Source: Escherichia phage EF3-1. Taken from it: a stretch of 50,066 bases of DNA. The stretch is from sequence record PQ571291; one strand, given 5' to 3'. The stretch's first letter is position 1, and each line of letters starts with the position of its first letter. A model generated the notes under the pieces. That model was not told where the DNA came from, did not search any database, and saw nothing but the letters and a program-made list of their open reading frames with translations. This document shows positions 14,336-16,681 of the stretch, in pieces. The position numbers and the translations under genes were made by a program.

Positions 14336-14363
14336 TTGACTAAACGCTGTTAATGGCTATAAT
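14336..14363 (+). promoter_or_regulatory. sigma70 consensus-like promoter for recombination module (TTGACT-16-TATAAT)
   Basis: TTGACT 14336-14341, 16-bp spacer, TATAAT 14358-14363; ATG at 14395. Confidence 0.6.
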
Positions 14364-14394
14364 GGATTCATCGTAAATGAAGGAGATAAACACA

Positions 14395-15459
14395 ATGTTC
14401 CAGGTATTCACATCAAGCCAGCTTTCTAACGACGAGTATCATAGCAACGAAGGTTGGGCGGCAGAGTATGTAAGCGGATCGAGCCTTGCAGAAATCTATC
14501 AAACTTGCCCGGCTAACTGGCGATTCAAGAAGAATGAGACAACGAAAGCGCTGGAGTTCGGTACTCAGTCGCATACCAACTTTGAGAGCCGAGATCTGTT
14601 TACTGCAACGTATGCACGTTGTCCGGCTCCGTCAGAGTTCAAGGATCTGATTACGTCACAAGCCGCACTGGCTGCAAAATTAAAATCTTTCGGCCTGAAA
14701 GGTACATCCGGTAAGCAGTACCCGGACCTCATCAAGATGATGGTTGATTGCGGTGAAGAGCTAAACGTCCAATATCTGATCGAGTTGATTGCGGAAGCAG
14801 AGGCGCGCTCTGAAGGAAAGAAATTGGTTGACGCTGACAAATACGACGCTTGCATGAAGATGAGAGCAATCCTTGAACAAAATCCTGATCACGAAGCGTG
14901 CATCAACAGTGAAACGGCGCAGCGTGAGATTTCAATCTTCGGTGAGATATCCGGCGTAAAAGTTAAGGTTCGACTTGACCATCTGGACTACAAAGAGAAT
15001 GTTCCAGGTCGTGTCCTGACTGGTTATGATGAGAATGGAGATCCGGTATTCGAAGATGTTATTTTCCCTGAAGCACTGATTATCACTGACTTCAAAACAA
15101 CAATGAGCGCCAACCCGTTAGAGTTCCCGAGACTGGCATACAATCACGGGTATTATCTGAAAATGGCCTTGCAGCATGATCTGCTACGACGCGCAATCCA
15201 GGCTGGCGCTTTTGAAGGCAACTTCCCGGAAGATATCCCGATCGTAGTTCGATTGCTGGCTCAGGAGAAAAAAGAGCCTTACATCGCACTTGCTTACCGT
15301 ATGACTATGGAGCAAATCAGGATCGGTCGTAGTCAGTATGTTAGCGTAGTCCACACTTACAAGGCTTGCTCTGAAATGGATGTTTGGCCTGGGTACGCTG
15401 GCGACGCAAGCGAGATTGAACTTGAAACGCCATCATGGGTGCGTTACCAAAATAAGTAA
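14395..15459 (+). CDS. recombination exonuclease, PD-(D/E)XK type (354 aa)
   Basis: ATG at 14395 after SD AAGGAG; motifs VRLDHLDY and IITDFKTT fit D...(D/E)xK nuclease core; upstream of Erf and SSB. Confidence 0.6.
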   Translation: MFQVFTSSQLSNDEYHSNEGWAAEYVSGSSLAEIYQTCPANWRFKKNETTKALEFGTQSHTNFESRDLFTATYARCPAPSEFKDLITSQAALAAKLKSFGLKGTSGKQYPDLIKMMVDCGEELNVQYLIELIAEAEARSEGKKLVDADKYDACMKMRAILEQNPDHEACINSETAQREISIFGEISGVKVKVRLDHLDYKENVPGRVLTGYDENGDPVFEDVIFPEALIITDFKTTMSANPLEFPRLAYNHGYYLKMALQHDLLRRAIQAGAFEGNFPEDIPIVVRLLAQEKKEPYIALAYRMTMEQIRIGRSQYVSVVHTYKACSEMDVWPGYAGDASEIELETPSWVRYQNK

Positions 15460-15533
15460 ACGGCACAAATAGCTAAACAAATAATTAATGAGGTGTTATA
15501 ATGCACCTCATACACCAATCAGGAGAAGTTAAG

Positions 15534-16181
15534 ATGCAATTATCACCAGAAACAAACGAAATTCTTCCCGCACTGTTCAATGCTCGCAACAAATTTGCTA
15601 AAGCAAAGAAGGACGCAAAAAACAATCACCTGAAAAATTCATACGCAACCCTTGATGCAATGATGGCGGCCGTTAGCCCGGCGCTCACCGATAACGATAT
15701 TATGATCCTGCAATCAATGCTGGACACCAGCACGGAAACAACCTTCCATCTTGAAACGATGCTGATTCACAAATCCGGGCAATGGGCCAAGTTCTTCATG
15801 ATGATGCCTATTGCAAAGCGCGATCCTCAAGGTGTAGGCTCAGCGATGACGTATGCGCGGCGTTACTCATTAGCCGCAGCGCTGGGGATTAGCCAGAGTG
15901 ATGACGATGCTCAGCTTGCAGTGAAATCTGTCAAGGACTGGAAAAAAGAACTTGATGCGTGTGAAGATATCGAATCACTGAAAGAGGTATGGGCTAACGC
16001 TTACCGCCAGACGGACACGGCAAGCAAGTCAATCATTCAGGATCACTACAACGCACTTAAGGCTAAGTTTGAGATCGGTAAAGCTCGTGGTATTCGCCCG
16101 GCGCAACCGGAGCAGAAAAAACAGGTTGAAGCAACGAGCGCGAAGCCTGTACAATCTCAATCAATCACCAACTTCGAATAA
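15534..16181 (+). CDS. erf: single-strand annealing protein, Erf family
   Basis: SYATLDAM and GSAMTYARRY motifs typical of ERF superfamily; SD AGGAGAAG. Confidence 0.65.
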   Translation: MQLSPETNEILPALFNARNKFAKAKKDAKNNHLKNSYATLDAMMAAVSPALTDNDIMILQSMLDTSTETTFHLETMLIHKSGQWAKFFMMMPIAKRDPQGVGSAMTYARRYSLAAALGISQSDDDAQLAVKSVKDWKKELDACEDIESLKEVWANAYRQTDTASKSIIQDHYNALKAKFEIGKARGIRPAQPEQKKQVEATSAKPVQSQSITNFE

Positions 16182-16227
16182 TCATCAGGGCGGCTTCGGT
16201 CGCCCATAAATTTTAGGAGAGAAAATT

Positions 16228-16650
16228 ATGCATATTATCACTGGCGAGATCCGTAAAGAACCGAAGATTCTTGAGCGTAACAGCGGAAATACTTATATCA
16301 TTGAACTGGCAGAAAGCTATAAGCCTCGTGATGGCGATCGTGAATACACCAACTACACATTCTTTTTTAGCGATGGTGGAAAACCTGGCCTTGCTGATTG
16401 GTATCGTGAAGCATTCCAAGTTGGTCGAGTAATCTCAGTATCGTGCGAAACGTTGAAGATCTCATCCCGCGAACATAACGGAACGGTTTACAATTCATTG
16501 CAGGCCGCTGATTTCCCTAAGCTGGTATTCAGTCAACGAGGTCAAAACAACCAGCAACAACAATCTAACAACCAACAACAACGCACACAACAACAATCAC
16601 AGCCACAGCCAAATCCTCAGTCAACATTTGATGACGATATCCCGTTCTAA
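16228..16650 (+). CDS. ssb: single-stranded DNA-binding protein
   Basis: OB-fold-like N-terminus, Q/N-rich linker, C-terminal acidic tail ending DDDIPF. Confidence 0.8.
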   Translation: MHIITGEIRKEPKILERNSGNTYIIELAESYKPRDGDREYTNYTFFFSDGGKPGLADWYREAFQVGRVISVSCETLKISSREHNGTVYNSLQAADFPKLVFSQRGQNNQQQQSNNQQQRTQQQSQPQPNPQSTFDDDIPF

Positions 16651-16654
16651 TAAA

Positions 16655-16681
16655 AAGCCCCGCATTGCGGGGCTTGTTTTT
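16655..16681. terminator. bidirectional rho-independent terminator
   Basis: AAGCCCCGC-ATT-GCGGGGCTT hairpin with A-run upstream and T-run downstream between convergent ssb and tail-fiber genes. Confidence 0.75.

Follow-up and report, generated by a model that had tools for sequence, protein, structure and literature searches.

A T1-like recombination module in Escherichia phage EF3-1 with a predicted sigma70 promoter and a cassette-like internal element

Introduction

The 50,066-nt sequence of Escherichia phage EF3-1 (record PQ571291; this whole stretch of DNA is called the window below) contains, at positions 14336 to 16681, three co-directional genes which an initial annotation described as a self-contained recombination module: an exonuclease gene (exo), a gene for an Erf-type annealing protein (erf), and a gene for a single-stranded DNA-binding protein (SSB; ssb), read from a classical sigma70 promoter, unlike other genes of the phage that lie behind a repeated promoter-like cassette. 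The question raised by this locus is whether the module forms a unit apart, both in the functions it encodes and in the way it is transcribed. The three genes, the promoter, and the terminator were all present where they had been described, and the module is a known one, since its genes, promoter, and terminator are already annotated in the records of phages T1, Chapo, and TLS. We consider it highly probable that the locus is a recombination/replication-support operon of a T1-like (Drexlerviridae) coliphage, which would be transcribed from a promoter in front of exo (P1) and from an element between exo and erf (P2), and whose products would act in the resection, coating, and annealing of DNA ends.

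Results and discussion

Kinship and gene content

A megablast search of GenBank phages with the region 14000-17000 matched 69 records, all of them T1-like Escherichia or Shigella phages, with a nucleotide identity of 92-96% to T1, JMPW2, SH2, and FCWL1. Judged by its sequence, EF3-1 is a T1-like phage (Tunavirus, Drexlerviridae), and bases 14336-16681 are orthologous to Orf29-Orf28-Orf27 of T1, i.e., exo, erf, and ssb. Among the relatives examined (including L001, which is T1, AY216660; L003, IsaakIselin; L004, BEK12B; and L008, a Braunvirinae phage), the exo-erf-ssb order is common to Tunavirinae, Tempevirinae, Braunvirinae, Webervirus, and Macdonaldcampvirus. Transcription of the unit is insulated, with genes on the opposite strand on both flanks and a 520-bp intergenic gap upstream. 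The elements of the module are the following:

14336-14363, + strand: predicted promoter P1, with the -35 TTGACT at 14336-14341, a 16-nt spacer, and the -10 TATAAT at 14358-14363 (11/12 consensus match)
14395-15459, + strand: exo, 354-aa PD-(D/E)XK nuclease of the RecE type (exonuclease VIII-like), preceded at 14380-14385 by the Shine-Dalgarno sequence AAGGAG
15461-15479, + strand: degenerate copy of the T1-like 21-nt direct repeat, CGGCAC-AAA-TAGCTAAAC compared with ATAGCAC-nnn-TTGCTAAAA
15488-15511, + strand: hairpin ATGAGGTG-TTATAATG-CACCTCAT, with the -10 TATAAT (15497-15502) in its loop, the core of P2 ahead of erf-ssb
15534-16181, + strand: erf, 215-aa single-strand annealing protein of the Erf family, preceded at 15521-15525 by the Shine-Dalgarno sequence AGGAG
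16188-16205, + strand: GC-rich stem-loop GGGCGGC-TTCG-GTCGCCC followed by the interrupted T-run ATAAATTTTA, in the erf-ssb gap (-14.2 kcal/mol, z -2.7)
16228-16650, + strand: ssb, divergent SSB of 140 aa, with an OB-fold core (residues 1-105), a disordered linker rich in Q, N, and P (106-132), and an acidic tip
16655-16675, both strands: bidirectional intrinsic terminator AAGCCCCGC-ATT-GCGGGGCTT, with a T-run on both strands

The product of exo had been proposed to be a PD-(D/E)XK exonuclease, and this assignment was borne out and refined to the RecE type by matches to Pfam PF12684 (PDDEXK-like; 59.3 bits, with a curated cut-off of 26) and phrog_412 'exonuclease VIII' (E 1.1e-101), by the catalytic motifs, and by the predicted fold. 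A single-sequence search of PDB sequences matched nothing, and a profile of 19 homologues reached E. coli RecE (3H4R, E 1e-4), placing H60 on the GTAFH motif of RecE and D232-x-K234 on its D-V-K; the residues H60, D195, D232, and K234 are invariant in the 19 homologues. The top Foldseek PDB match of the AlphaFold (AF2) model, which has a pLDDT of 90.6, was likewise RecE (3h4r, E 1.8e-7, target-normalised TM 0.64). Phage SH2 has the identical exonuclease (100%), and gp60 of mycobacteriophage Che9c, which we take to be a RecE homologue used in mycobacterial recombineering, is a homologue (E 4e-12, tblastn). The longest reading frame of the gene spans 14377-15459, and its likely start is the ATG at 14395 behind AAGGAG, which yields the 354-aa length of the T1 protein. 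The ATG at 14377, which has no Shine-Dalgarno sequence and lies ~7 nt from the transcription start predicted for P1 near 14370, was rejected.

Identification of the second product as an Erf-type annealing protein also stood, with matches to PF04404 (84.2 bits, cut-off 25) and phrog_155 (E 8e-49) and with 52.8% identity over the full length to Gp77 of phage SECphi27 (PDB 9y6u/9y9c). The longest erf reading frame covers 15501-16181, and the alignment with this solved homologue begins at the Met encoded by the ATG at 15534, which is likely the start codon; the ATG at 15501, devoid of a Shine-Dalgarno sequence and located inside a -10 hexamer and hairpin loop, was rejected. Gp77 is an Erf homologue encoded adjacent to an SSB gene, forms a 24-mer ring as seen by cryo-EM, is essential, and triggers the RAZR defence, from which the mutations S19R, S31R, and D41Y allow escape (RAZR defence paper, Nature 2026). 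At these three escape positions, EF3-1 Erf carries N19, N31, and D41, the first two in place of S19 and S31 of Gp77, so that the two proteins may not be equally sensitive to RAZR.

The third product ends in TFDDDIPF, and its last six residues, DDDIPF, are those of the E. coli SSB tip. Among 26 homologues the FDDDIPF tip hardly varies, and it can be aligned with the C-terminal ends of the E. coli and Klebsiella SSBs. Both single-sequence and profile searches of the PDB gave a similarity confined to the C-terminal tail (the last ~30 residues), and the identity of the protein was therefore tested by its predicted fold. Residues 1-105 of the AF2 model have a pLDDT of ~90 and residues 106-140 a pLDDT below 50, and the best Foldseek matches of the core, including all 14 at E<=1e-3, were the OB domains of bacterial, mitochondrial, and apicoplast SSBs (best E ~1e-4, TM 0.5-0.6 on the target). 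The identification as an SSB with a DDDIPF tail, as first proposed, is based on this predicted fold together with a match to phrog_44 (E 1.4e-24) and the tail itself.

Whether this SSB belongs to recombination or to replication bears on how self-contained the module is. T1-like phages do not encode a DNA polymerase and are believed to rely on enzymes of the host (PMC11447400), and for this reason the SSB probably also serves replication; a tip identical to that of the host protein fits a phage dependent on the host replisome and on SSB-interacting proteins. The stronger alternative that the SSB is chiefly a replication protein, merely co-transcribed with exo and erf, which would coat the lagging-strand template and recruit the host replisome via DDDIPF, draws on the same two facts and on the location of the primase and helicase genes just downstream of the module. 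We regard it as a serious possibility, although a somewhat improbable one, since the tight erf-ssb linkage is kept in every relative examined, published work ties annealing proteins to their cognate SSBs and to SSB C-terminal tails (PMC5928155, 10.1101/2020.04.14.041095, PMC13490951), and the two roles are compatible. The description of the module as self-contained consequently holds for end resection and annealing but not for all recombination and replication functions: the genes for the primase, the SF2 helicase, and a VRR-NUC nuclease are all located outside it, and the SSB probably has its share in replication.

The module ends, as had been described, at a bidirectional terminator. Its hairpin has a 9-bp stem with seven GC pairs, flanked by the tails GTTTTTAC (+ strand) and TTTTATTA (- strand), and folds with -17.3 and -18.1 kcal/mol on the two strands (z -3.8 and -3.9), with no shuffled sequence folding as well. 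It is situated 4 nt past the ssb stop codon and 4 nt from the stop codon of the convergent tail-fibre gene (16680-18389, minus strand). A terminator hairpin is present 3' of ssb in all relatives examined except BEK12B, and it is annotated in T1 and Chapo. An Rfam scan of 13600-16900 detected no known RNA family and gave only sub-threshold terminator-like matches at 16620-16750.

The promoter in front of exo

The near-consensus promoter TTGACT-16-TATAAT of the initial annotation was confirmed as a sequence feature, matching TTGACA-17-TATAAT at 11 of the 12 hexamer positions. P1 lies 31 nt upstream of the exo start, and the runner-up candidates in the 520-bp gap score 9/12. The two genes upstream of the gap (12670-13874) are on the minus strand, and the closest + strand gene before them is closed off by a strong bidirectional terminator (12647-12666). 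This leaves 13875-14394 as the only place for a + strand promoter, and P1 is by far the best candidate there.

The site is also conserved. TTGACT-16-TA(T/C)AAT was found 27-31 nt from the exo ATG in T1, Chapo, IsaakIselin, BEK12B, tunus, and Klebsiella phage K50_evo14. In an alignment of seven phages, from at least two Drexlerviridae subfamilies, TTGACTAAA is invariant and the -10 is invariant save for a T/C at its third base, and the flanks cannot be aligned. Promoters are annotated at the equivalent position in the T1 and Chapo records, and the equivalent P51 is listed for TLS. The idea that TTGACTAAA of P1 is the displaced right half of the repeat (TTGCTAAAA) was dropped; it requires an indel plus a 6-bp shift, and P51 of TLS reads TTGACTACA. 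Predicted promoters at 2837-2864 and 4627-4656 of the T1 record in GenBank (AY216660) bear the label 'RpoD-independent'.

Repeat cassettes and the timing of expression

The cassette repeat aaATAGCACnnnTTGnTAAAA occurs in ~20 copies in the window, with a -10-like hexamer 22 bp further on, followed by a CATCGA-type leader and a ribosome-binding site; examples are found at 34980-35038 (+), 40600-40659 (+), 31612-31671 (-), and 32076-32135 (-). The repeat is a palindrome, TAGCA-N5-TGCTA. Across an alignment of 16 cassettes, only A2 and T6 of the -10 are invariant, and there is no usable -35. Thus, by their sequence the cassettes carry a sigma70-type -10 as well, and the contrast with P1 concerns the -35 and upstream region rather than the holoenzyme. 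The opposition between a classical sigma70 promoter and the cassettes is hence justified for the strong -35 of P1 and not for the type of the -10. Each copy of the cassette has a hairpin which encloses or abuts the -10 (mean z -3.0), and the sense-strand RNA folds more stably than the antisense strand in 16/18 cassettes. RNAalifold applied to the aligned cassettes recovered only the repeat palindrome and not these hairpins, which vary in position and were subsequently tested sequence by sequence. A model of the cassette (R1), built from 16 cassettes of the window, had no match from 13335 to 15463, and hence none at P1.

The same 21-nt repeat has been described in phage TLS, in 18 intergenic copies located ~76 nt upstream of start codons and with a function left unexplained (German et al. 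2024, PMC11447400). TLS has only three intergenic sigma70-like promoters, that of the exonuclease being among them, and its P51-gp51-DR9-gp52-T52 segment was called 'the only clear' transcriptional module (PMC11447400).

These differences allow the suggestion, already made for this locus, that P1 gives the module, or at least exo, a temporal or regulatory class of its own, in which P1 would be read by the unmodified host holoenzyme upon DNA entry, and a phage factor bound at the palindrome would be required for cassette activity or would switch it off. The strong -35 at 16 nt, the lack of a repeat box, and the absence of a cassette-model match near P1 agree with such a division, as do the fixed 22-bp distance and missing -35 of the cassettes, the palindrome, which is typical of a dimeric regulator site, and the rarity of canonical promoters (two of at least 11/12 in EF3-1, three intergenic ones in TLS). 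A reading frame for a Cro-like helix-turn-helix (HTH) protein adjoining the primase gene points the same way. The suggestion is a reasonable one, yet we hold it only tentatively and as rather improbable: erf and ssb have a cassette-like element of their own, which makes the module a mixed one, and the TLS paper leaves the repeat without an explained function (PMC11447400). Nothing usable on transcript timing or transcript maps of T1 or Drexlerviridae was found in the searchable literature, and the one RNA-seq paper mentioning Drexlerviridae profiled a T5-like phage. Moreover, exo of a Webervirus is preceded by the repeat-like ATAGCACTTTTTGACT-N21-TATACT instead of P1 (a weak match to the cassette model, E 0.27), so that the two promoter types are perhaps interchangeable and the type ahead of exo may not be fixed in the family.

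The adjoining reading frame mentioned above encodes 174 aa (19490-20011, minus strand) and lies between the primase and helicase genes. It has a weak match to a Cro-like HTH (PF14549, E 6.8e-5, below the curated cut-off), its Webervirus equivalent is annotated as a transcriptional regulator, and its product is a candidate for binding to the palindrome of the repeat. At 18408-18457, upstream of the tail-fibre gene, two copies of the repeat overlap and face in opposite directions (AATAGCACGAATTGCTAAGCAC...GTGCTATG).

Other near-consensus sigma70 sites cluster on the + strand at 33327-33655, a divergent region which corresponds to the genome end of T1. They comprise TTGTCA-17-TAGAAT at 33327, TAGACA-18-TATAAT (11/12) at 33395, and TTGACA-17-CACAAT at 33627. 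These are likely immediate-early promoters and agree with the promoter at 523-549 of TLS.

The element between exo and erf

The spacer between exo and erf (15461-15533) consists of GGCAC-AAA-TAGCTAAAC, N9, ATGAGGTG-T-TATAAT-G-CACCTCAT, and ACACCAATCAGGAG. A TATAAT hexamer is found 21 nt past GGCAC-AAA-TAGCTAAAC, in the loop of a hairpin, and is followed by the leader ACCAATCAGGAG. This layout is, at the sequence level, the architecture of the ATAGCACnnnTTGnTAAAA cassettes, with which P2 has in common both the ACCAATCAGGAG leader and the placing of the -10 in a hairpin. A weak -35, TAAACA (15474-15479), overlaps the degenerate repeat. As a full member of the cassette family the element was set aside (model E 1.8), and we term it degenerate or cassette-like. 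At the orthologous site, the cassette model scored 21.4 bits (E 1e-5) in the Braunvirinae phage L008 and 12.3 bits (E 0.007) in IsaakIselin, with weak matches in 5/6 other relatives scanned, and in TLS the site is occupied by the canonical repeat DR9 at the exonuclease stop codon (PMC11447400).

The hairpin of P2 folds with -13.8 kcal/mol (z -5.4). Over nine distinct sequences from GenBank and IMG/VR, 97% of the cells of the stem alignment are paired and 5/8 pairs show compensatory changes; a scan of IMG/VR with a 14-mer gave mostly chance matches, leaving ~8 usable T1-like contigs. G.U or U.G occupies six cells, and such pairing is possible on the + strand alone. In the loop, TATAAT does not vary and has TG in front of it, constituting an extended -10, and a promoter is annotated between exo and erf in the record of phage Chapo. 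Considering these features, P2 is probably a cassette-related, promoter-like internal element that adds to the transcription of erf and ssb.

An RNA-level interpretation of the same hairpin has to be weighed against this. The element could be a structure in the P1 transcript, i.e., a processing, pausing, or 3'-end-protecting hairpin without promoter function, that sets the ratio of exo to erf-ssb message, with TATAAT being a loop at the RNA level. The stem covaries with G.U intermediates tolerated only on the sense strand; a transcript begun at the -10 of P2 would lack the 5' arm, so that the stem forms in read-through RNA only; every cistron of the module ends in a hairpin; and the sense folds of the cassettes are the stronger ones, as described above. 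We nonetheless consider an exclusively RNA-level role unlikely. The variation of the loop hexamer among the 16 cassettes follows the pattern of a sigma70 -10, A2 and T6 alone being invariant, which argues for DNA recognition by sigma70; the extended -10 TG is present at P2; and the stem is not followed by a U-tract, as would be needed for an intrinsic terminator. The promoter and RNA roles are, moreover, not mutually exclusive.

With P2 read as a probable internal promoter-like element, the contrast drawn between this module and the cassette-driven genes applies to exo, which has P1 and no repeat box, and fails for erf and ssb, which follow the degenerate, cassette-like P2 at a site where TLS and the Braunvirinae phage have a canonical repeat. 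The sequence can be read as a hybrid module with exo transcribed from P1 alone and erf and ssb also from P2. With a hairpin closing each cistron, message stability may be controlled segment by segment, or transcription may end in part at these sites. The stem-loop between erf and ssb may be a weak attenuator or a hairpin stabilising the mRNA; comparable GC-rich hairpins with a T-rich tail occur in T1, Chapo, and the more distant relatives L003 to L006, and weaker ones in L007 and L008.

Three relatives (L003, L004, and L005; Tempevirinae and a Klebsiella phage) have an extra gene of ~95 aa between the exo/P2 element and erf. It is named 'tail length tape-measure protein' in two records, which is a mis-annotation, and a GC hairpin (T52 of TLS) is located 3' of it, ahead of erf.

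The upstream region

Upstream of P1 lies one further feature:

13875-14335, no strand assigned: AT-rich non-coding region with 25-36% GC in the composition profile, between a divergent cor-like lipoprotein gene and P1

The list of open reading frames contains none on the + strand of at least 40 aa that starts past 13869 in this region. A TGTAACAG(G/T)TG-type motif occurs in three direct copies (13946, 14089, and 14107), and its TGTTACA core in inverted copies at 13983, 14214, and 14224. The region may be an operator, or an iteron or origin-like region. A TATATATATAAT tract in it resembles one at 33407-33435, near the probable genome end.

That P1 is a chance consensus match, with the module being read from another start in this region or by read-through, is very improbable: promoter-like strings are frequent in such AT-rich DNA (a 9/12 site is at 14234-14262) and about 1.4 matches of at least 11/12 are expected per window from composition, but the hexamers and spacing of P1 are kept in seven phages amid sequence that has diverged beyond alignment, its distance to the start codon is 27-31 nt in every one of them, it was independently predicted in T1, Chapo, and TLS, and read-through would have to cross a strong terminator and then run antisense through two genes.

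As to the genome as a whole, bases 1-141 and 49926-50066 of the window are identical; the assembly is therefore either closed into a circle or duplicated at its ends, and the genome measures ~49.9 kb.

Proposed mechanism

The scheme proposed below builds on what was shown above, namely the identity of the three genes, the folds and catalytic motifs of their products, and the promoter, hairpins, and terminator as conserved sequence features. Host sigma70 RNA polymerase would start at P1 (14336-14363) and read exo, erf, and ssb up to the terminator at 16655-16675, and P2 (-10 at 15497-15502) would probably add transcription of erf and ssb. The RecE-type nuclease would resect the 5' strands at double-strand ends, the SSB would coat the exposed 3' single strands and could engage host SSB-interacting proteins through its DDDIPF tip, and rings of Erf would anneal complementary strands. 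As an outcome, terminally redundant phage DNA would be circularised or concatemerised, and recombination-dependent replication would be supported. From the families to which these elements belong we infer that the promoters are active, where transcription starts, what the enzymes do, and which part the module plays in vivo. The essentiality of gene 77 of SECphi27 fits such a mechanism by analogy. Classical genetic studies of T1 (Ritchie, Christensen, Pugh) reportedly traced concatemer formation and general recombination to phage genes for which the RecE pathway of the host could substitute.

Several points weigh against this scheme. The hexamer score of P1 is not statistically unusual, as first-order Markov simulations with the dinucleotide content of the window give 1.38 expected matches of at least 11/12 per window and 2 were observed; it is position and conservation in related sequences, not the score, that make P1 credible. 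The T1 note 'promoter, RpoD-independent' contradicts a sigma70 reading; it is probably a mistake in the record, since the promoters so labelled match the sigma70 consensus and T1 promoters are described as RpoD-dependent in the TLS paper (PMC11447400). The repeat box between exo and erf reached only 4.6 bits with the cassette model (E 1.8 in the window), which is not significant. The SSB had no match in Pfam at E<=0.1, which leaves the predicted fold, the phrog_44 match, and the tail to identify it. The cooperation of Erf with a RecE-type nuclease, in the way that RecT works with RecE, is putative. Finally, no expression or biochemical data for EF3-1 or T1 were found in the searchable literature.

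A more far-reaching proposal, which we regard as speculative and unlikely to hold in full, is that the operon is a deliberate hybrid. A host-type promoter free of regulation would drive the exonuclease gene, the degenerate cassette would contribute additional transcription of erf and ssb, the hairpin-embedded -10 would act both as a DNA promoter and as an RNA structure in read-through transcripts, and the palindrome would be the site of a phage regulator. If true, elements with a dual promoter/RNA function plus a regulator site would answer the question that the TLS authors raised about the repeat and would represent an uncommon promoter architecture.

Significance

A classical promoter of exo and a repeat inside the module are already in print for TLS (PMC11447400), and the module itself is ordinary. 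The practical gain of the present analysis consists of cleaner start codons for exo (14395) and erf (15534), and of the recognition, from the predicted structure, that the 'hypothetical protein' encoded 3' of erf in many records is an SSB with a tip identical to that of the host. The analysis also indicates that the module is not exempt from the repeat cassette of the family. The function of this repeat is an acknowledged question for T1-like phages, and the exo/erf junction is a compact site that bears on it. Of widest interest is the cassette, the degenerate copy ahead of erf included, with its -10 set in a hairpin: a palindrome at a fixed distance of 22 bp from the -10, a -10 in which only A2 and T6 are constant, and a sense-strand hairpin at the -10 go beyond the description in the literature.

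Comparison with known systems

The module of EF3-1 has the same genes, order, and spacing and the same annotated promoter and terminator as Orf29-28-27 of T1 (AY216660, CPTT1_050-052; exodeoxyribonuclease VIII, recombinase, and SSB) and as SH2, JMPW2, and FCWL1, and differs from T1 and its kin in the length of the downstream tail-fibre gene. The T1 record starts erf at the ATG equivalent to 15501, whereas Chapo, SH2, and the Gp77 structure support 15534.

With TLS (PMC11447400), the module has in common a sigma70-like promoter that begins with TTGACT directly upstream of the exonuclease gene (P51, gp51), a 21-nt repeat at the exonuclease stop codon, which is the canonical DR9 in TLS and degenerate in EF3-1, and a bidirectional terminator 3' of ssb (T54 on the + strand and T55A on the - strand in TLS). 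TLS has in addition a small gene, gp52, and the hairpin T52 between the exonuclease gene and the genes for the recombinase (gp53) and SSB (gp54), whereas in EF3-1 erf directly follows the hairpin and -10.

Beyond the T1-like phages, a RecE-type PD-(D/E)XK nuclease, in EF3-1 a predicted 5'-3' exonuclease, is likewise found beside a single-strand annealing protein in RecE/RecT of the E. coli Rac prophage and in gp60/gp61 of mycobacteriophage Che9c. In contrast to these, the annealing partner in EF3-1 is Erf and not RecT, and the unit includes an SSB gene; the nuclease, moreover, does not have the long N-terminal region of RecE. Phage P22 couples its Erf with the Abc anti-RecBCD functions and is not known to pair it with an exonuclease of its own. 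The Erf proteins of EF3-1 and P22 and Gp77 of SECphi27 all belong to the ERF family, and the gene for Gp77 is also next to an SSB gene. The SSB of EF3-1, with 140 aa compared with 178 aa in E. coli, shares with the host protein a predicted OB-fold core, a low-complexity linker, and the identical DDDIPF tip, and differs from it in its core, whose sequence is not recognisably similar and does not match the SSB family of Pfam.

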